Assembly (NCBI GenBank): GCA_964016885.1
Contig: OZ024740.1
Coordinates: forward strand, 370,078,001-370,142,000
Direction: 5' to 3'
Source: Eledone cirrhosa
Lineage: Eukaryota
DNA: 64,000 nt
Part shown: piece by piece, positions 117 to 56,403 of the stretch
Layout of the letters: every line of letters starts with the position of its first letter
Numbering within the stretch: position 1 is the first letter of the stretch
The notes under the pieces: model-generated
Databases searched by the model: none
What the model saw: only the letters and a program-made list of their open reading frames with translations
What the model was told of the DNA's origin: nothing
Position numbers and translations under genes: made by a program

Positions 117-1473
117 TTAGCTGTATACTTTGTGGAATGTTTTGTGGTATTTATGCAAGCAGATAGAAAACAAGTCAGCGCGTCTATTTATTATAGAATC
201 TAAATTAGATATAATGGTAAATTTTTCATTTAGACAGAGATTACAAATTTTGGATAGAGAACTGTTCAAGTATGTAGACGCAGAAGAAACCTTCTTCCAA
301 AAGATGCTATATTTAATATTTTTGTCTTTCAAGGACCATATGAGTTCTGAGAGAGCCGTGTTGGTTCTTTTAAGTTTGTATTTAAAAGACGAATGATGGT
401 TATAAAGACGAGCTTTAAAAGAGGTGGAAGTGGAGCCAAAATAGGTGAAGGAATTGGTGTCAGTTATAACTTTACATTCGTAAATTAAGTTTTTATCAAG
501 ACAATGGTTGTTGAGAGGACATTTATTTTTAACAGGGCAATTGCAATTGCGATTAGAGAGATTATTAACGAGTGACCTAGTGTTATCTATAGAAGGAATT
601 GGATTGGAGAAGTTATTTGCGATAGGAATAATAGTTTCTTGATTTAGAATGGGATTAAGAACATTTAGCGAAGTTGTGTTTGACGTTGTATTTGGGTTTG
701 CAAAAATTAGCCTAGGGTTTACAATCACGTCGGGAGTACTATTACTATTATTATGATATTCAGTGTTGGAAGGAAGAGATTTAGTATTTAGTATTTTATT
801 GTTGTGTTTAGAGATCATGTTGGAAATGTTGGAGGATGTAGAATAGGAAAATTTTATAGTGTGTTTGTTAAATATTTTACTATAGATTTGTGAGGGAGGG
901 AAGCATTTATTTAAGGCACTAAAGGATAATTTAGGAATATTGTTATTAATAGAGATGGAGAAAGGAGCATTATACCAGATTATGTTTTTGTATCTAGGTC
1001 TTTTATTAAAGTTATTGGAATGATCATGATTAATTATTCTACTGTAAGTTCTTTTAGAATTTGTTTCTTTACTATATTTGATTTTATCAGGATAGCCGGC
1101 TTTAGAAAGCGCGTTATTATAGTAATTGGTGTTAGAATCAAAGATGTTTTTATTAGAAGATAGGTTAGATATTCTTTTTCCAATATTACAAACTATAGCA
1201 TTCTTGATATTAGTAGGATGATTAGATTTAAAGTTAACATAACTTAGGTTCTCATTGTTTTTATCGTAAGGGTAATATAGGCCAGTGTCAAGATTAAGAG
1301 ATACATCCAAGAAATTAGCTAGTTTGATGCTGTTATAAAATTCAATTTTTAGGTTATGTTGGTTAAAGAGATTACGCATATTGTTCTTAATAATATTAAG
1401 GTTAACTATGTTGCAATTTAAGATAGTAAAGAGTCCATCGTCACGATAAATTCCACCGCGAAGTTGAGGAAAA
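117..1473 (-). mobile_element. 5'-truncated Penelope-like element (Naiad-type), RT C-terminal half plus GIY-YIG endonuclease, open frame
   Basis: ORF 117..1847 contains YRDD, FLDVSLNL, YVNFKSNHP (PLE RT palm/thumb), CNCPVKNKCPLNNHC, LIYEC...YFGSTSTSFKARLYNH (GIY-YIG), CNLCLNEK and the ...SICLH tail. Sequence 5' of ~1473 is fold-back plus microsatellite, so the N-terminus of the track ORF is spurious. Confidence 0.92.
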
Positions 1474-1681
1474 TTCCTCAACTTCGCGGTGGAATTTATC
1501 GTGGAATTTATCGCGGGTTCCCGACATATGGGGTTTTTCCTGGTGCCTTCATAAACAAAGTAAACAAAGAGAGAAAAAGATAGAGAAAAAGAGATAGTGG
1601 TTGTGAGAGAGTAGATTGGAAGAGAGACAGAAAGAGGGAGAGGAGGCAGAGAATGATAATGGAAGAGAGCTGGTGGTGCTG

Positions 1682-4349: not shown

Positions 4350-5040
4350 TTATGTAATATTCGGCTTGTAGTGGGAAAAAAGGGTTTTAGTTCTGTGACG
4401 GCAGAATAATGTTCGTTCAATTCTGTTATTCAGCAGTTTCTTCTTGTGTGTGATTATGTAATAAATCTCAAGATTACATAATTTGCAGAAATTTTGGCTC
4501 CTGGAAAAGCTTTGGGTTTTAGCTAATTTTTCCCATTTTAGGGTAAACTTTTGGTCGCTATCCCTGAGCGTCCAAGCTTTTTCTGCTAAAGTTGTTACAT
4601 TTCTTTGGCTCTGGTGTTTTATTGAGTAAGAATGCCTATACAATCGAGATTTAAACGATGTTGCCGTTGATCCCACGTAATACCACTCGTTACCTCCGGA
4701 TTTAATGGTACACTTATAAATAATATTTTTTTCCAGGCAGTTATTGCCGAGGGGGCAGTTGTCAGGATAGGTGCAGTTACAGTTGTGTACGTTGGGTTTT
4801 CTCTGGAGTAGTATTGCGGACGAACTTAGGTGTGGTTTATTTATGTTCTGTAGTGTATTGTCTACTGTTTTTTTTGTGTTCTTTGTACTTAAGTTCTTAG
4901 TGTTTTCGTTTAACCTTCTAGTATTGATCTTTTTTATGTGTTGTTCAAGGTTTAACGCTGTAGAGTATGACAGTCTTATAGTGGTAGGGTTTAGGATTTT
5001 GTGGTATTTGTGTGATGTGGGAAAATGTCTGTGGGAAAAT
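4350..5040 (-). mobile_element. 5'-truncated Naiad-type PLE, linker plus GIY-YIG endonuclease
   Basis: IRLSYST, CNCTYPDNCPLGNNC, IIYKC...YYVGSTATSFKSRLYRH, CKLCNLE, CRHR; the first ~10 codons of the track ORF come from the adjacent antisense SINE. Confidence 0.9.
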
Positions 5041-5150
5041 ATCCCGCCGAGGTTAACTTTGCCTTTCATCCTTACGGGGTCGATAAAATGAAGTACCAGT
5101 AATACGCTGGGATAATTGCTGGCCTTGTGACAAAAGTAGAAACAATTATA
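5041..5150 (+). mobile_element. Meta-domain SINE, 3' half
   Basis: CTTTGCCTTTCATCCTTACGGGGTCGATAAAATGAAGTACCAG core followed by GGCCTTGTG..AGTAGAAACAATTA tail. Confidence 0.85.
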
Positions 5151-5269
5151 TAAGTCTATTTTGGTCAGCCTATGAACTTTTCTGTCGATCCTCGAATCAT
5201 TACGAATCTCCCGAAGCTCAATATAGCTCTAGTATAACACTCCATATGGCATCCAGATTGAAACTGTAA

Positions 5270-7093: not shown

Positions 7094-7968
7094 GAGGTAT
7101 GTCTGAAAAGTTCCAGGACTGATGTCACAAAAGCTTTATTTCAAACCCAAACCTCACACTGAGAGTTTTCCCCTTCAAAGTCATCCCCCTGGAGTCTAAT
7201 GCACTTTTCCATCCTTTTCTGCCACGCTTGCATGCACTCCTGGAAGGATTCTTCCGGGATCCTCCGCAGTTCCGTCGTCACGGCCTTTTTGTTGTCGTCC
7301 ACGTCTTCAAAACGGGTCCCCTCCAGGTCGTACTCGAAGATCCATGACTCATCACCGGTGATGACTGACCCTAGCAAGTCTGGTTCGGTTTCAAGACGCT
7401 CGAGGATGTCCTGGTACACTTGCATGCGTCGACCCTTCTGGTCATCGTTCAGCAGTTTTTGCACCATCTTCTCGCAGACTTTCCTTATATCCAAATCTTC
7501 AGTGAGAATTTTCCAGACGCTGTCCCGATCCATGCCCAGCTCATTTGCCATCAGTCGAACAGTCAGCCGACGATCGCTACGCACCATCTGCCTCACGCGC
7601 TCAACGTTGACCTCAGTCCTGGTTGTTGGGGGCCTTCCGCTCCTGGGGTCATCTTGCACCACTCAAAAACACGTGAGCGTGACATCCTCTCATCTCCATA
7701 CACTTGCTGCAGCAATCCCACTGCTTCTGTCGGAGTTTTCTCCAACCGACCAGAAACTTCAAGTTTGTTCGTTGCTCTGTGCTCATTGCTTGACGACCTG
7801 AAACAGAGGACATGTATATACAATTATGAAGAAAAGGTTGATCGCTGCAGAGAGCACAGTTACATACACCAGGGGGATTACTTTGAAGGAGAAAACTCTT
7901 AGTGTGAAGTTTGGGTTTGAAATAAATATTTTGTGACATCAGTCCTGGAACTTTTCTGACACACCTCG
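7093..7968 (-). mobile_element. Mariner (Tc1/mariner) DNA transposon, internally deleted, ~100-bp TIRs, TA-flanked
   Basis: TA|CGAGGT...ACCTCG|TA termini. Frameshifted transposase: MSTEQRTNLKF, LQQVYGD..MSRSRVFEW, DDPRSGRP, ITGDESWIFEYD joined directly to GTRFEDVDD (catalytic middle deleted), C-terminus GDDFEG. Confidence 0.95.

Positions 7969-22025: not shown

Positions 22026-22030
<5 letters not shown>
21853..22030 (+). mobile_element. Meta-domain SINE with small core deletion
   Basis: A and B boxes plus tail; GCCTTTCATCC is missing. Confidence 0.88.
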
Positions 22031-22109
<79 letters not shown>

Positions 22110-22189
22110 ATATATATATATTTATATAAATATATATATATATATATATATAAACATACATAAGTGTTTGTGTATATCTATGTATGTAT

Positions 22190-22239
<50 letters not shown>

Positions 22240-22358
22240 ATAGACATAGAATATTCGAAAATATTCTGTATGTTTATAATAAACATTTTGAAGACCTAAT
22301 CGCTATAGAATAGAATACGTCACGTATTACAATTAGATTCTCGATAAAAGCAAGGGAA

Positions 22359-22401
22359 GTAATCTACGCGTTTCATTCTTATTAGAAATCTTCAGGACTA
22401 C
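22359..22401 (-). ncRNA. Type I hammerhead ribozyme (minus-strand copies at 22359, 22669, 22979, 23289)
   Basis: Reverse complement of GTAGTC-CTGAAGA-TTTCTAATAAGAAT-GAAA-CGCG-TA-GATTAC. Confidence 0.9.
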
Positions 22402-23427
22402 ATATCCAGTGCTTTTATCGAGAATGACACAGCTAGAGACTTATAGAATACTTAGCTGTGTACAGAAACTGGTTTGAAAGAGCGGTTGCCGGTCCGGCAG
22501 AAATTAGAAATTGGAATAAATGCTCTGAAATAGCGATATATATGTGAAAATAGACATAGAATATTCGAAAATATTCTGTATGTTTATAATAAACATTTTG
22601 AAGACCTAATCGCTATAGAATAGAATACGTCACGTATTACAATTAGATTCTCGATAAAAGCAAGGGAAGTAATCTACGCGTTTCATTCTTATTAGAAATC
22701 TTCAGGACTACATATCCAGTGCTTTTATCGAGAATGACACAGCTAGAGACTTATAGAATACTTAGCTGTGTACAGAAACTGGTTTGAAAGAGCGGTTGCC
22801 GGTCCGGCAGAAATTAGAAATTGGAATAAATGCTCTGAAATAGCGATATATATGTGAAAATAGACATAGAATATTCGAAAATATTCTGTATGTTTATAAT
22901 AAACATTTTGAAGACCTAATCGCTATAGAATAGAATACGTCACGTATTACAATTAGATTCTCGATAAAAGCAAGGGAAGTAATCTACGCGTTTCATTCTT
23001 ATTAGAAATCTTCAGGACTACATATCCAGTGCTTTTATCGAGAATGACACAGCTAGAGACTTATAGAATACTTAGCTGTGTACAGAAACTGGTTTGAAAG
23101 AGCGGTTGCCGGTCCGGCAGAAATTAGAAATTGGAATAAATGCTCTGAAATAGCGATATATATGTGAAAATAGACATAGAATATTCGAAAATATTCTGTA
23201 TGTTTATAATAAACATTTTGAAGACCTAATCGCTATAGAATAGAATACGTCACGTATTACAATTAGATTCTCGATAAAAGCAAGGGAAGTAATCTACGCG
23301 TTTCATTCTTATTAGAAATCTTCAGGACTACATATCCAGTGCTTTTATCTTTCAAACCAGTTTCTGTACACAGCTAAGTATTCTATAAGTCTCTAGCTGT
23401 GTCATTCTCGATAAAAGCACTGGATAT

Positions 23428-23470
23428 GTAGTCCTGAAGATTTCTAATAAGAATGAAACGCGTAGATTAC
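23428..23470 (+). ncRNA. Type I hammerhead ribozyme (plus-strand copies every 310 bp; predicted cleavage after 23464, 23774, 24084, 24394, 24704, 25014, 25324)
   Basis: Stem I GTAGTC/GATTAC, core CTGAAGA and GAAA, stem II TTCT-AATA-AGAA, palindromic stem III ACGCGT, GUA cleavage triplet; stem I is extended by a perfect 16-bp helix ATTCTCGATAAAAGCA/TGCTTTTATCGAGAAT. Confidence 0.92.
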
Positions 23471-25487
23471 TTCCCTTGCTTTTATCGAGAATCTAATTGT
23501 AATACGTGACGTATTCTATTCTATAGCGATTAGGTCTTCAAAATGTTTATTATAAACATACAGAATATTTTCGAATATTCTATGTCTATTTTCACATATA
23601 TATCGCTATTTCAGAGCATTTATTCCAATTTCTAATTTCTGCCGGACCGGCAACCGCTCTTTCAAACCAGTTTCTGTACACAGCTAAGTATTCTATAAGT
23701 CTCTAGCTGTGTCATTCTCGATAAAAGCACTGGATATGTAGTCCTGAAGATTTCTAATAAGAATGAAACGCGTAGATTACTTCCCTTGCTTTTATCGAGA
23801 ATCTAATTGTAATACGTGACGTATTCTATTCTATAGCGATTAGGTCTTCAAAATGTTTATTATAAACATACAGAATATTTTCGAATATTCTATGTCTATT
23901 TTCACATATATATCGCTATTTCAGAGCATTTATTCCAATTTCTAATTTCTGCCGGACCGGCAACCGCTCTTTCAAACCAGTTTCTGTACACAGCTAAGTA
24001 TTCTATAAGTCTCTAGCTGTGTCATTCTCGATAAAAGCACTGGATATGTAGTCCTGAAGATTTCTAATAAGAATGAAACGCGTAGATTACTTCCCTTGCT
24101 TTTATCGAGAATCTAATTGTAATACGTGACGTATTCTATTCTATAGCGATTAGGTCTTCAAAATGTTTATTATAAACATACAGAATATTTTCGAATATTC
24201 TATGTCTATTTTCACATATATATCGCTATTTCAGAGCATTTATTCCAATTTCTAATTTCTGCCGGACCGGCAACCGCTCTTTCAAACCAGTTTCTGTACA
24301 CAGCTAAGTATTCTATAAGTCTCTAGCTGTGTCATTCTCGATAAAAGCACTGGATATGTAGTCCTGAAGATTTCTAATAAGAATGAAACGCGTAGATTAC
24401 TTCCCTTGCTTTTATCGAGAATCTAATTGTAATACGTGACGTATTCTATTCTATAGCGATTAGGTCTTCAAAATGTTTATTATAAACATACAGAATATTT
24501 TCGAATATTCTATGTCTATTTTCACATATATATCGCTATTTCAGAGCATTTATTCCAATTTCTAATTTCTGCCGGACCGGCAACCGCTCTTTCAAACCAG
24601 TTTCTGTACACAGCTAAGTATTCTATAAGTCTCTAGCTGTGTCATTCTCGATAAAAGCACTGGATATGTAGTCCTGAAGATTTCTAATAAGAATGAAACG
24701 CGTAGATTACTTCCCTTGCTTTTATCGAGAATCTAATTGTAATACGTGACGTATTCTATTCTATAGCGATTAGGTCTTCAAAATGTTTATTATAAACATA
24801 CAGAATATTTTCGAATATTCTATGTCTATTTTCACATATATATCGCTATTTCAGAGCATTTATTCCAATTTCTAATTTCTGCCGGACCGGCAACCGCTCT
24901 TTCAAACCAGTTTCTGTACACAGCTAAGTATTCTATAAGTCTCTAGCTGTGTCATTCTCGATAAAAGCACTGGATATGTAGTCCTGAAGATTTCTAATAA
25001 GAATGAAACGCGTAGATTACTTCCCTTGCTTTTATCGAGAATCTAATTGTAATACGTGACGTATTCTATTCTATAGCGATTAGGTCTTCAAAATGTTTAT
25101 TATAAACATACAGAATATTTTCGAATATTCTATGTCTATTTTCACATATATATCGCTATTTCAGAGCATTTATTCCAATTTCTAATTTCTGCCGGACCGG
25201 CAACCGCTCTTTCAAACCAGTTTCTGTACACAGCTAAGTATTCTATAAGTCTCTAGCTGTGTCATTCTCGATAAAAGCACTGGATATGTAGTCCTGAAGA
25301 TTTCTAATAAGAATGAAACGCGTAGATTACTTCCCTTGCTTTTATCGAGAATCTAATTGTAATACGTGACGTATTCTATTCTATAGCGATTAGGTCTTCA
25401 AAATGTTTATTATAAACATACAGAATATTTTCGAATATTCTATGTCTATTTTCACATATATATCGCTATTTCAGAGCATTTATTCCA

Positions 25488-25520
<33 letters not shown>

Positions 25521-25624
25521 TATATTTATATATATTTGTGTGTGTGTGTATATAAACATACATAGATATACACAAACACACGCACACACATATATACACG
25601 TGTATATATATATACAAACATATA

Positions 25625-25805
25625 TGATTGTGTGTGGTAAAAAACAGTTAGACCGTAACCCACCTAGGTACTCGATATTTGGGGCAGTAGATTGGTTAAT
25701 ATGAAAGATTCAGGACCCCGACGTCTGAGCTCCAGCCGTTTCGACAGTTTGGTTCTAGCTGCTGAATCGGCCGGAGCTCAGTCGTCGGGGTCCTAAAGTT
25801 TATAC
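25625..25805 (-). mobile_element. Short fold-back element related to 6855-7040
   Basis: AGGACCCCGACG.CTGAGCTCC / GGAGCTCAGTCGTCGGGGTCCT arms; minus-strand TATCGAGTAC motif. Confidence 0.65.
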
Positions 25806-51117: not shown

Positions 51118-54100
51118 TCAGTCATTACTCTCACTATCAGTATTACCTGAGTCAAGGTTTTCATAAACTCTTTCCGCGTCATTTTCACACTGTGTGGTGC
51201 ACAGGCAAAGGTCGGTGCACTGCAGATTCTTTGACCTGCAGGAACATCTTTGTGAGGAACAATCTCCCTTGCACTGGCATCTCACCATCTCAATGATGGA
51301 TTTAGGTGCTTGCTGGAGGATCATCAGTAGTGGTTGGCTTTAGTTGGCCATCATCTCCCTTGTAGTAGCCTGTCTGCGTTGGATCCAGCGGAACTTGCTG
51401 GAGAGTGCTTGCCTGGCTCCAAACTAGTGCTTGCACATGTACCCTTAAGATGTGCTTCTTGAGGGCACCAACTGTAGGTAGTAACTGGTCACTCTCTGAC
51501 ATATATTTACAGAACAGGTACCATCGCAACGCTGGAATGCTTTTGATTTGGATTCCCTTTGGACTGTAGGCAGGACACACTAAACTTTCCAAGCTGGTCA
51601 GAAGTTATTCAATCACTTCAGTATCATCAGACAGCTTTTTCAGAGCGTCAATTGTGTTATCGTCAGCTTCAAGGAAGATCTTAAACCATGTGGCCTTTCC
51701 TACTCGAGAAACCTTCCCGTATTATCGGCGCCAGAGAAGGCATGGAATGCAGGTAAATCCTTCGCCATTACTGGACCTAGAACGTCCCAGAATGGCTGGA
51801 TCTTTAGAACACTTGATGCCAGAACCAGGACATCTGTGTCAGGTGAGAACAAAGTTAGTTGCATATCTCTTGGGTTTCGCCTTGTTGAAGATACTGCAAG
51901 GCATATCATCAGTGTGTCAGCTTCCTTGTGGTTGTTTTCACTGAAAGGTTCCAAATCCTTGTTGCTCCTGGTTTGGCAGAAGCTGAAGTGATGACAAGCT
52001 TGGAGGAATATTTGCTGTAGTACAGAGTCTTTCTACCAAGCACTTGGTCAAATCAGCCTTCGTCTTTTCATGTGACAGGAATCTGCTCATGGTTATGTGC
52101 TTGATGCTCGTCTCATCTCTGACTTGATACTGGACTGGATCCTTCCCCTGGCGTCTCTTCTGGCTGGTTGCATTCTTCAAGGAATCGGTCTTATATGTGT
52201 CTAACACGAGAATTATTTCGTCGAAGTTCTGCGTGAGGTTCATCAGTCTTTCATAGAAACTTTGGCTTAGATCTCTCACTGTAACCATGGTGCTGGTTTC
52301 TTAGTCAGCTTCTGAATAAGCACCATTCCATCTACCACCGCACCCCTCCTGTTGTGATTGAGATTGTCCTTTTCAGTGGCTTCATCTTGCAGTGAATCGC
52401 CTTGTGCTGTTTTCTCTGATGCTATCTGCTCAAGGAGATGAATGAGTTTGAACTTGTCAGTGCATGGCAACACTGACCCATTTGGGGCAAAGAGTGCTCT
52501 TGGCGTCAAGGTGAACTCGTAATTGCTAATTGCTTCTTTCTGGTTCACGTCTCGGTCGGACCTGGCAAGAACCATAAGTCTGCCATACAAATCTTTGGTT
52601 TCGTTCATGTCAATGGTTTTGTCACGAACCTTTACAGCATGTCTTTGTTGCCAGATGTGAACATCAAGTCTCTTCACCGGTGCCCAAATGCTGACATCCC
52701 CATTGATCCGTTCAGCAACGTATTCCTCGTACAGCTTTTGTCCAGTGTCATCCATCTCCAAGATCTGTGTTACATACTCATCTGGGATATATGCATGAGA
52801 TATCATGTTGTAGAGTATTTCCCCAGCAGCAAATGGATTGCCGTGAGTCAATATAGCACTCTTGATTTTGCTTACTGCTCCATGAGCTCGTTTGATTGTA
52901 GCTGGAGATAGGTCATGATGCTCAAGGGCATGTCTTTCACCAACACCGAATTGGTCCTTAAACTCGTTTGCAAGGCAGGATATTTCAGGAGCTGCCATGA
53001 AGAAGCGTTGCCTTACATTTGGATTATTGGAAATTCCAGTGAGACCAGCTTGAACTTTCATGAATTTGTTTAGATGTTCACAGGCATGGTCACCTCCAAT
53101 GGATACGAACGGGATGGCATTCTTGGTGATGGATATATTGCCCTTTTCAAGTTCCCTCGATATGTCGGGGTGGTTGGTCCTCAATGCGTGCATATCTGCT
53201 ATGTAGAGTGGCCAGAGTCTCTTATACTTTAACCTGTCCATTGAGAAGGACAGCTTGCTCTGTGCTTCTCCAGCTTCAAGATGAAGATTCAGATCAGCAT
53301 TCTGTGATGCCACTACAAAGTACAGAACAGTCTCTACCTGATGCATATAGTTCATCAATGAACATGGCATTCTTAGACTTTTCTGCTTCCCAGTCTTGCA
53401 GTTTCTTGATCACATCATACTCTGCTAAGACTTGCTGCAGATGAGCCTTTGCATGCTTCAAAGACTCAGCCTTTGTGCCTTTGTTCTGAACCGCCTCTTC
53501 TACTTGAATCGTTGCTTCTAGACACAGATCTTTCAGATGAGGATTGTCCTCTAGGAACTGCTCCAATGCCAGTTCATAAAGTGCCATGTGGGAGTAAATG
53601 TGTGCACATAGCGAACGCTTGTAGTGTGTGCACTTGAGAATTTGTCTGGTTGTGGCAGAACTATACAGATCGGCTTCCATCCAGGCGTCGTCTATTCCCG
53701 AATTTTCAATTGATGAGCTGAGAGCTCTCAACGCAGCCATGACAACATGAAACTCACCAAGTCTTGGCAGCACTTTGCCTTTCAAATCCGACCTAGCATC
53801 AACTAACTGTACTGCTATCTCGTAGAGTGCCATGTCGAAGGAAATGACAGTGATGTACTTGTCAGCAACTGCCAGCTTTTTTAATGTATTTGCTTGCATC
53901 ATAACGGTTAGCAATGTTGGCCATTCAAGCGCGACCTCTGGGAGCAAAGGTAGAGCTCCAACTTCAGTTAAGGGTAGGCTTTTCGATAAAAGTGAGCTAT
54001 ACCCTGCCCAGCCTGGAATTCGACTCGAGTCTCCATCGTTCATTCGGGAAACAGCGTTGGCAACGACCAATCCAGATGTGTGAGCTGGTAGGTACTATCC

Positions 54101-55869
54101 ACACCTTCTTTCTCAAACTGAATCATTCTCTTCTCGGATGGTGTTTTCTCACAAGGAACTATAGATGTATGATATGGAGTCACATAGAGACTTTGTTCAT
54201 CAGTGATATTTAGGGGTGATGCAATTGGTTCTCCAGGGGCATCAGCTTTCTGGTATACGGCAGTGATAGTGCCATGACTGGTACCTTTACCATCTGGAGT
54301 GTCCTCAGTGAAATCCGCATTGTCTAATGCGAAGAAGACAAAAGTGCCTTTCTTTAGGAATGGTGGCACATACAGCCCTTGGAACTGTTTGGTATTCTCC
54401 ACTACAGCATTGGCAACAGCTGTTTCCATCATTAGCGTACGGCTGTATAAAACACGGTAATCTTGGGCCTTGAGGAGATTAACGAGCATCTTATTTCTTG
54501 TCTTTTGATGGATGCTCAGCGCCAATCCCACAGCTTGAGGATTTTCTCTAACATGCTGCGACTGAAAGCCAGCATGCTCAGTTCTGGGCTCAGTTTTGGC
54601 CAATCCCACAACTTGAATTCAAACATCAGATTTTGACTCATTGAAAGGGCAGCTCTGTTCACAGCATGTGTTCGAACTTCAGTCTCCAGTTCATTTGCAG
54701 GCCCTGCCATGATCCAGCGAATAAGTGTATAGAGTTCCACTGGCACATCTTCTATTTTGCTGGAAACTGGGATTAAACTTTGATGGCGGTTGTCTTTTGG
54801 TAAAATTTTCAATGCTCTGGCGAACAAGCTGTGTTGACCTATACAGATTCTTCATGTTGTCCGTGTTATCAGAAATGATCTCAAAATGCACCATTTTAAC
54901 CTCACAGGCTTCAGGGTAATTCAACACAGCTGACTTTCGCCTATTGCTTTGCAGAACAGACCTTACACCTGGTAATTCTGTTAATATTTTGTCTTTCAGC
55001 CATTGTCTGGTATAGACAGGTCTGTGATTTGGCAAAGCCTCTGCTCCACCTAGCATGTTCAAATAGGTATTCTCGATGTCTGCCATGGAAAGGTATGCTC
55101 CATCTGTAGTTTGCACGTCGATAATGTTCACTAATTCAATGAAACTAGCTGTTTGCTGTTGACACCCACTCTCTTTGTTTGCTTTGTTTGCGATAGCTTT
55201 ATCTCTCAGAACATGGAACGCATTTCTTGTCCAACACTGTTTATGATGTTTGATATCAACAGCGTGGGCATCCCCTTCGGAGATGCAAGATGCCATTCTT
55301 GTTTTTAGTTCTGGATTAGGAGAGATTTCCACAGCTTTTTTTAGAGCTTGGCCCGCATTGGCAGTTCTTACTGCAAACAACTGTTGGTCACCAAACGTTT
55401 GACAAAAAAAGCACAAATTATTTTTTGGTGGGTTTGTTGCTGACCGTGTAAACGGCCCTAAGATTGTGGCAGAGGTTGATGGCTCACTCCTGTCAAAGCT
55501 TGAAGGGCGTTCTCGTTTTCTGTGGATATGTGATCCAGTAGACAAAGACCGTTGGTGACGGTCTCTTGCACGTTGCATTTTAACTTTACTGGTGGCCTTG
55601 GAGTAGCACGTGCAATGCCAAAAAGCCTTATTTCTCTGCAAAGTTTCTGTTGTGCAGTCTTCTAGCCTCTTTTGAATTTTGACAAATTCGCCATCATGAA
55701 GTAATGCTCGCTCCTTCACTGCAGCTAACAAACTATGGTATGAATATAATTTTGGTTGTAACACAAACTGGCCTGCATCTTGTAGGCACAAAATACACCC
55801 TTTCCAGTCAATTGTCTCTTGTTGCTGTCTACCACGTCGTGGTAACGTTGCTGTGACCACGTTGTTCAT
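51118..55869 (-). pseudogene. Academ transposase-XPG nuclease-Cys8 fusion pseudogene
   Basis: Consecutive frameshifted ORFs: FALDNADF..GTSHGT, SFDMALY, LGEFHVVM, DHACEH, VVDGM, HKEADT, DTDV, FHAFSGAD (XPG/FEN-like) and C-terminal CQCKGDCSSQRCSCR..CTDLCLC. Confidence 0.88.
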
Positions 55870-56403
55870 TGGTCTGAAATATTATAAACACTAATGAAGT
55901 AATTACATGGCATTTGATTATTATTATTATTTTTATAATTATTATTATTGTTATTATGTTAAATTAGCCACTAAAATTAGAATCCCAGTTGGTTAGAATT
56001 TGAGATACTGTTGAAAAAGGTTATCGGTAGTCACAATTTTGAAATTCCAAGATGGCTACCACAGACACCTTGAAAAAAATGGCAACATTGGTTTTTGGAT
56101 TCAGTATGTCCAGAAGTTTTCGAAAATGTATAGTTTTGCTAATCTCCAAGAAATCTGAAAGAAAGTACCAATCGTTTCATTATGAACTTGACTGTATGCA
56201 ATATATCGAATATTAACTAATAATACAGACAGAAACCTGTTTAATTCCATTGATTTCTAGGTTGATAGTGATTAGTGAATGGTTAACTAAAAAAAGGACT
56301 TCTACAAAATGTAATATATGGTAACAACAAACGTTTTAAGAGCAACAATGTATATTTAGCTTATAGAAAAATTTGATATTGTGTATATTAATGTGAAATA
56401 TTT

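Follow-up and report, generated by a model that had tools for sequence, protein, structure and literature searches.

Judged by its sequence, the 310-nt repeat described here is a family of non-LTR retrozymes with a predicted hammerhead ribozyme and with the integration signature of Penelope-like elements (PLEs). The locus from which we started lies in the window, a stretch of 64,000 bp (positions 370078001–370142000) of the 3.0 Gb genome of Eledone cirrhosa, and a sample of the copies elsewhere in the genome was examined. The locus is real, it is recurrent, and it is explained in kind: a retrozyme was inserted in the PLE way. The mechanism that we regard as probable is priming of the two target strands by a PLE enzyme with a single circular RNA monomer as template, the circularity of the template being inferred from the purity of the units.

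At the window locus a minus array of 3.6 units and a plus array of 6.9 units stand head-to-head (Table 1; unit position 1 is window position 23348). From 23349 leftwards to 22235 the minus array has zero mismatches to the 310-nt unit. Position 22234 is a mismatch, and the flank at 22226–22233 then agrees again with unit positions 249–256, ATATATAT. The plus array is an exact 310-nt repeat throughout, and its final letters are TTCCAAT, ending at unit position 282. The preliminary description had claimed that both multimers share the dinucleotide TC at their junction, and mapping of the phase to the unit found this overlap to be exact. It had also put one outer end 130 nt and the other 165 nt beyond the predicted cut on its downstream side, 35 nt apart, and had them run into (TA)n; both statements hold for the unit coordinates (22235 is position 247 and 25489 is position 282) and for the flank sequence. 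In the left flank, 22164–22187 is an inverted, exact 24-nt copy of 25556–25579 in the right flank, and a short direct copy of a right-flank segment lies near 22150. An inverted flank match of this kind was found at 1 of 29 loci (about 1% across loci); the copy at the window possibly reflects templated repair at insertion. Among the other features of the window, the frames at 52–56 kb were used in searches of Pfam and PDB, and nothing was found.

Table 1. Features of the window (coordinates count from its first letter).
Feature	Position	Strand	Remark
PLE fragment, abundant Hydra-type family	117–1544	-	ORF in window
PLE fragment, second abundant Hydra-type family	4350–5228	-	ORF in window
SINE-like repeat of about 190 nt, many copies	5041, 9867, 16870, 19285, 21673, 21850, 41197, 45435, 50430, 60660, 62075		
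Frame, presumably a mariner-type transposase fragment	7141–7662	-	From ORF list
Left (TA)n/(TG)n microsatellite, likely target	22029–22234		From sequence
Minus arm, ends at site A	22235–23349	-	1115 nt, 3.6 units, unit positions 63 to 247
First hammerhead motif of minus arm	23289–23331	-	4 copies leftwards at 310-nt steps; from phase map
Head-to-head junction, 2-nt overlap TC	23348–23349		Shared exactly by both arrays
Plus arm, ends at site B	23348–25489	+	2142 nt, 6.91 identical units, positions 1 to 282
Type I hammerhead motif, unit 81–123	23428–23470	+	7 copies at 310-nt steps; predicted cut after 23464
T at unit position 243	23590	+	11/11 units, both arms; no other examined locus fixed for it
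35-nt tail, unit positions 248–282	25455–25489	+	At plus outer end only
Right (TA)n/(CA)n/(TG)n microsatellite, likely target	25490–25627		From sequence
Run of broken long frames, 45% GC block	52276–55881	-	Probably another transposon; no match in Pfam search

The tandem unit of 310 nt has a GC content of about 33% and contains no ORF of 150 or more amino acids across the arrays. It falls within the definition of non-LTR retrozymes as non-coding tandem repeats of 150–450 nt with less than 50% GC, and the RT and GIY-YIG ORF of an autonomous PLE is absent from it. Each unit has one type I hammerhead motif, in which the core CTGAAGA/GAAA/GTA and three stems were assigned by hand. It consists of stem I (GTAGTC/GATTAC), CTGAAGA, stem II, GAAA and the palindromic ACGCGT as a weak stem III. 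Cleavage is predicted after unit position 117 (window 23464), and the variants 84A, 119G and 94A keep or increase the pairing of the motif. A search of Rfam with the unit gave 0 matches at E ≤ 1. The predicted fold of the monomer RNA reaches −68.6 kcal/mol (z −3.8), and none of 100 shuffled sequences equalled this degree of self-pairing.

The family comprises at least 812 candidates, and a total of 49 loci was examined. For the first set 40 of 54 candidates were scored and gave 34 clusters including the window, all of which were retrieved. A held-out set of 15 further loci (13 clusters of one search and 2 of another) was retrieved after the rule given below had been set. Head-to-head pairs were found at 41 of the 49 loci, 32 in the first set, where the other clusters are L044 and L050, and 9 in the held-out set. 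The outer ends fall into two sites, A (unit positions 243–256) and B (281–290), and 38 of the 41 pairs have one end of each kind, whereas not a single pair is A+A or B+B. The first set contributes 29 of its 32 pairs; the remaining three have one unclassifiable end (L045 at 197, L054 at 269 and L058 at a gap). In the held-out set all nine simple pairs are A+B, five of the 15 loci have a single arm, and L224 is complex. With L224 scored as B+B, the rule holds for 38 of 39 pairs (p = 7e-11 against a free choice of ends). The two ends of a pair lie about 26–47 nt apart, in keeping with the tail of 30–40 nt at one end only that marks PLE insertions. Flanks of the copies are mostly (TA)n, and a few ends (e.g., that of L037) are set in AT-rich sequence of no simple repeat pattern. 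Direct repeats of 490, 448 and 208 nt, resembling very long target duplications, surround the insertions L035, L051 and L055.

The expectation that outer ends would cluster near the internal motif was right in that ends do cluster in other copies, but there are two clusters, and each insertion uses one of each. None of the termini coincides with the cleavage site, and the end positions across copies support the earlier proposal that priming took place inside the AT-rich region and not at a cleaved 3' end.

The same genome contains two autonomous PLE families of Hydra type with the same layout. The second of the two families represented in the window has at least 150 copies that are identical over 136 residues, with intact 785-codon frames in a 3587-nt unit, and looks very young. 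Its frame carries the motifs RWK, DKT and CxCX5C, which are marks of the Hydra clade (Craig 2021, PMC8557442); sequence searches of Pfam and PDB with the PLE frames gave no match, and the PLE label therefore rests on the motif comparison with Craig 2021. In both families the 3' UTR carries a hammerhead motif, and beyond it lie two end sites (about 95 and 115 nt apart, respectively) that run into (TA)n. Inverted pairs combine a short end with a long end in 9 of 10 cases (from 30 loci) and in 10 of 12 cases (from 18 hand-picked loci). The three exceptional pairs read past the end site into the 5' UTR, so that 19 of 19 scorable pairs fit the rule. A 3-nt indel is the same in both arms in 12 of 12 pairs, and the arms are closer to each other than to the median outsider in 11 of 12 pairs of family 2 and 8 of 10 of family 1, some of these values being inflated by short arms.

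A search for a helper compared the unit with the end sequences at 84 loci of four PLE families, a part of those in the genome, and gave no convincing match; the best match between unit and PLE is AT-rich, antisense and 51 nt long. Older relatives of the 310-mer (2727 and 1693 candidates) have the module 171–290 and both ends in common with it, whereas none of the four PLE families compared has this module. Their pairs comprise five A+B and one true A+A, present twice (L124, duplicated as L125), the rest being mis-paired, as the classifier did with L132 and L141, or interrupted. Within this older superfamily, L107–L156 keep the module 171–290 and have divergent hammerhead cores, e.g., TTGATAA.

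As had been predicted for other copies, the inner junctions vary, and the inner ends are spread over the unit. In the first set 20 of 32 joins are clean, 6 contain 1–3 extra letters, and 6 have longer gaps, which are partly artefacts of the exact-match walk. Microhomology of at least 2 nt (2–7 nt) is present in 14 of the 20 clean joins, compared with 18.5% in random joins of the unit (p = 7e-7). The 2-nt overlap at the window, with a chance of 18.5%, is unremarkable by itself, and significance arises only across the family. At the cleavage site (115–120) there are 3 of 64 inner ends and no enrichment. Position 17, on the other hand, accounts for 8 of the 64, a number reached in none of 20000 simulations, and four loci, which represent three unit types, have the join 265/17. 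Recurrent inner joins of the kinds 265/17 and 212/15–17 were seen among L052, L055, L056, L057, L061 and L062, which differ in unit type. The pile-up at position 17 could represent the 5' end of a linear transcript.

Each locus is built from essentially one unit type. Of 5213 unit calls at 18 diagnostic sites that vary among loci, 13 differ from the majority of their locus, a rate of 0.25% that is above the background of 0.07% (59 of 86108). When the two arms were compared, 440 of 443 comparisons gave the same letter, although many concern rarely varying sites. In the search that covered the 243T of the window, which is fixed in 11 of 11 units there, 17 of 17 candidates were scored, and elsewhere the variant occurred only in single units. 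Further variants that are private to a locus and fixed in both arms are 189T in L038, 94A in L042, an additional T at 119–121 in L045, 38T in L058, 73T and 241G in L059, and 73A in L222. Private here refers to the 49 examined loci; since the family has at least 812 candidates, both arms could have come from a source array outside this sample, and subfamilies active at different times would also make the arms agree. The cleavage site is crossed without a scar, with one of 307 calls differing at position 117 and one of 293 at 118. Purity is most simply accounted for by a bottleneck of one unit that was copied many times, and it favours a circle over linear multimers.

A circle would be unnecessary if two-ended PLE priming had used an uncleaved linear multimer transcript, or two RNAs of one active parent. 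We consider this rather unlikely, albeit with several observations in its favour: unprocessed RNA is the main substrate in vitro in the available account (PMC11167929), inner ends accumulate at position 17, three variants are common to single units of both arms, and the large family was sampled in part. Linear templates would require that transcripts escape cleavage at their many ribozymes and that each private variant had become fixed in a parent beforehand; 243T of the window is fixed nowhere else among the 17 of 17 scored candidates. Moreover, the arm ending at position 17 is the shorter one in only 3 of 9 loci, and loci mixed for subfamily variants are rare.

Two-ended priming could also have made two short arms of about one unit or less, which then grew by DNA slippage, unequal exchange or conversion. 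Changes of this kind do occur. Periodic unit variants are present in L052, L211, L212, L213 and L223, L044 is a higher-order array, and across 8 loci 17 variants are found in several units, 3 of them in both arms. Such multi-unit variants mean that older arrays lengthen and mix as DNA, so that unit counts overstate the rounds of reverse transcription. L067, L044 and L068 (contig C14, 25.209–25.227 Mb) together form a higher-order array of minus-only retrozyme blocks with (TA)n breaks at position 204, which is a DNA-level amplification. As the origin of the arms in general, later growth is nevertheless improbable: the youngest loci (the window and L031–L037) reach 10.9 units per arm and have no multi-unit variant, 79 single-unit changes remain unhomogenised in the set, and a sub-unit arm offers no repeat from which to expand.

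The arm lengths bear on the question whether one or two ends were primed. Their median is 1004 nt, 74 of 87 arms exceed one unit, and arms reach about 29 units, the long arm of L042 measuring about 9.1 kb. All end sites lie 125–175 nt downstream of the predicted cut; a cleaved linear monomer would therefore yield only that much cDNA, and the longer arms need uncut or religated RNA. For PLEs it has been proposed that one end is primed and that snap-back self-priming of the cDNA/RNA then makes the inverted arm (Arkhipova et al. 2013, PMC3846280). Self-priming would account for identical arms and for the microhomology at the junctions, and 4 of 41 joins are near-symmetric. These joins are not enriched, however, since 5.4 were expected, and six loci (L032, L061, L063, L212, L219 and L220) have arm lengths that are impossible by fold-back from either end. 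The A arm is the longer arm in 19 of 38 A+B pairs, and in the autonomous L193 the short-end arm is longer and cannot have templated the long end. For the 310-nt family self-priming is largely refuted, and it is very unlikely as the general explanation. The one-A-one-B rule, the shared templates and the arm lengths together led us to choose two-ended priming over self-priming.

In L1 twin priming a single RNA is the template for both target ends, and the inner ends join by microhomology; the arms derive from different parts of the RNA, one of them from the poly(A), and only a minority of insertions are inverted. L1 inversions have their 3' ends outward and are joined by microhomology, and in these two respects they match the arrays. 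The preliminary description had likened the window locus to L1 twin priming with rolling-circle products. Two-ended priming on one RNA with microhomology stands as the likeness; the nearest process, on the other hand, is PLE insertion, both arms copy the same sequence and overlap, and inversion is near-universal. An L1 twin-priming product was rejected for the window locus, which has neither a poly(A) end nor non-overlapping segments. Twin priming by a LINE enzyme is highly improbable for the family, given the outward 3' ends and microhomology joins on the one side and, on the other, the absence of poly(A), the arms overlapping in sequence, the (TA)n target, the inversion of nearly all copies and a layout that is that of the PLEs of this genome.

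In an outside sample (X2, X3) the (TA)n ends of short-read contigs fall at positions 256 and 284–289 (window 23603 and 23631–23636), and three other minus-to-plus joints with sides of only 24–28 nt give a faint hint of the same layout. Among the sequencing runs listed with the repeat none is an RNA run. Among the contigs listed none bridges the window junction or shows an empty site, but an assembly or long-read fold-back artefact can practically be discounted in view of 41 loci with asymmetric joins and rule-bound ends and of outside contigs that end at the two sites and contain other joints, with sides below 31 nt. Runs X5, X7 and X11, which carry other organism labels, each gave one 340-nt contig of a single unit type; carry-over or diet is possible, and we make no claim of spread.

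According to the mechanism that we favour, priming of both target strands on one circular monomer, transcripts of the arrays would self-cleave as dimeric hammerheads, and the monomers would be ligated into circles. A PLE protein, likely a dimer, would bind the A–B region of the RNA, and its reverse transcriptase/endonuclease would cut both strands of a (TA)n tract. One target end would anneal to ATATATAT at site A, and the other would start at site B with an AT match of 1–3 nt. Each enzyme would travel round the circle, about 1 kb at the median, displacing the cDNA of the other. The two cDNA 3' ends would then anneal by 1–7 nt or be end-joined, and each would copy the other. Older arrays would be lengthened and mixed afterwards by DNA duplication.

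The chances appear about even that PLEs in general can transpose only by a two-ended reaction on an RNA circle closed by a ribozyme, in which one enzyme dimer would hold one RNA, with a fixed start site for each target strand, and both strands would be copied round the circle. Counter-evidence to the mechanism that we favour comes from the one-armed loci (5 of 15) and the complex locus of the held-out set and from the A+A relative L124/L125. In addition, unprocessed RNA was the main substrate in vitro and the strands did not differ in start site (PMC11167929), and of 9 frog retrozymes only one was seen to cleave (Li et al. 2026, bioRxiv 10.64898/2026.07.22.740005).

Metazoan retrozymes have been described as units of 150–450 nt with one type I hammerhead, low GC and a self-paired fold (PMC7229834). 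Circles have been shown in other animals, and PLE helpers and reverse transcription of more than one unit were proposed (Cervera and de la Pena 2020, PMC7229834). Li et al. (2026) linked retrozymes to pLTRs and ascribed the tandems to local DNA amplification. The unit architecture of these elements and their large target duplications are as found here, whereas head-to-head arms, fixed paired ends and single-haplotype arms do not appear in the available text of either account; the word "inverted" occurs 0 times in that of PMC7229834.

PLE insertions show an inverted 5'-truncated copy at the 5' end, a tail of 30–40 nt at one end and a bias for (TA)n (Craig 2021, PMC8557442); a repeat of 34–37 nt had been described earlier (Schostak 2008, PMC2377424), and PMC7761336 is a review among the background literature. 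EN-positive PLEs of the Hydra clade (PMC8557442, PMC3846280) resemble the retrozyme in the inverted copy, the tail, partial tandems, (TA)n and the near-end hammerhead. Unlike them the retrozyme has no ORF and up to about 29 units per arm, and its tail is near-strictly one per insertion, whereas that of PLEs is described as optional. For Poseidon PAc in vitro, both strands are cut and extended, two adjacent internal RT starts bound the tail, and a dimer is predicted (Frangieh et al. 2024, PMC11167929). In the available text of that study the RNA was linear and unprocessed, the two start sites are not reported to be tied to the two ends, and priming is non-homologous, whereas site A of the retrozyme matches (TA)n. 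Circles were proposed for PLE tandems by Cervera 2014 (PMC4209133), who noted motif pairs on opposite strands. How PLEs make tandem and inverted insertions is named among the open problems by Craig 2021 (PMC8557442).

Our literature search found no paper on retrozymes with head-to-head arms, although structures of this kind may be present in the supplementary material of Craig 2021, Cervera 2020 and Frangieh 2024. A search of the literature from 2023 for PLEs in combination with circular RNA, cryo-EM and a dimer found no paper, and a search for twin priming and Penelope found no title on the PLE mechanism; in none of the material found is the one-A-one-B rule stated. The strict rule, the arm lengths that exclude snap-back at six loci and the single-template purity over many units appear to be new.

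The helper of animal retrozymes was previously guessed from co-occurrence and from likeness to pLTRs; now a PLE integration signature is seen at nearly every locus examined. Since one genome offers a 310-nt RNA, a (TA)n target and an intact PLE frame of 785 codons that is young, the PLE cycle becomes testable in vitro. If PLEs in general do transpose by a two-ended reaction on a closed circle, one mechanism would account for the tail and the inverted copies, for the pseudo-LTRs that autonomous elements have and for the arrays of the retrozyme, and in these arrays the genome would directly record rolling-circle reverse transcription.
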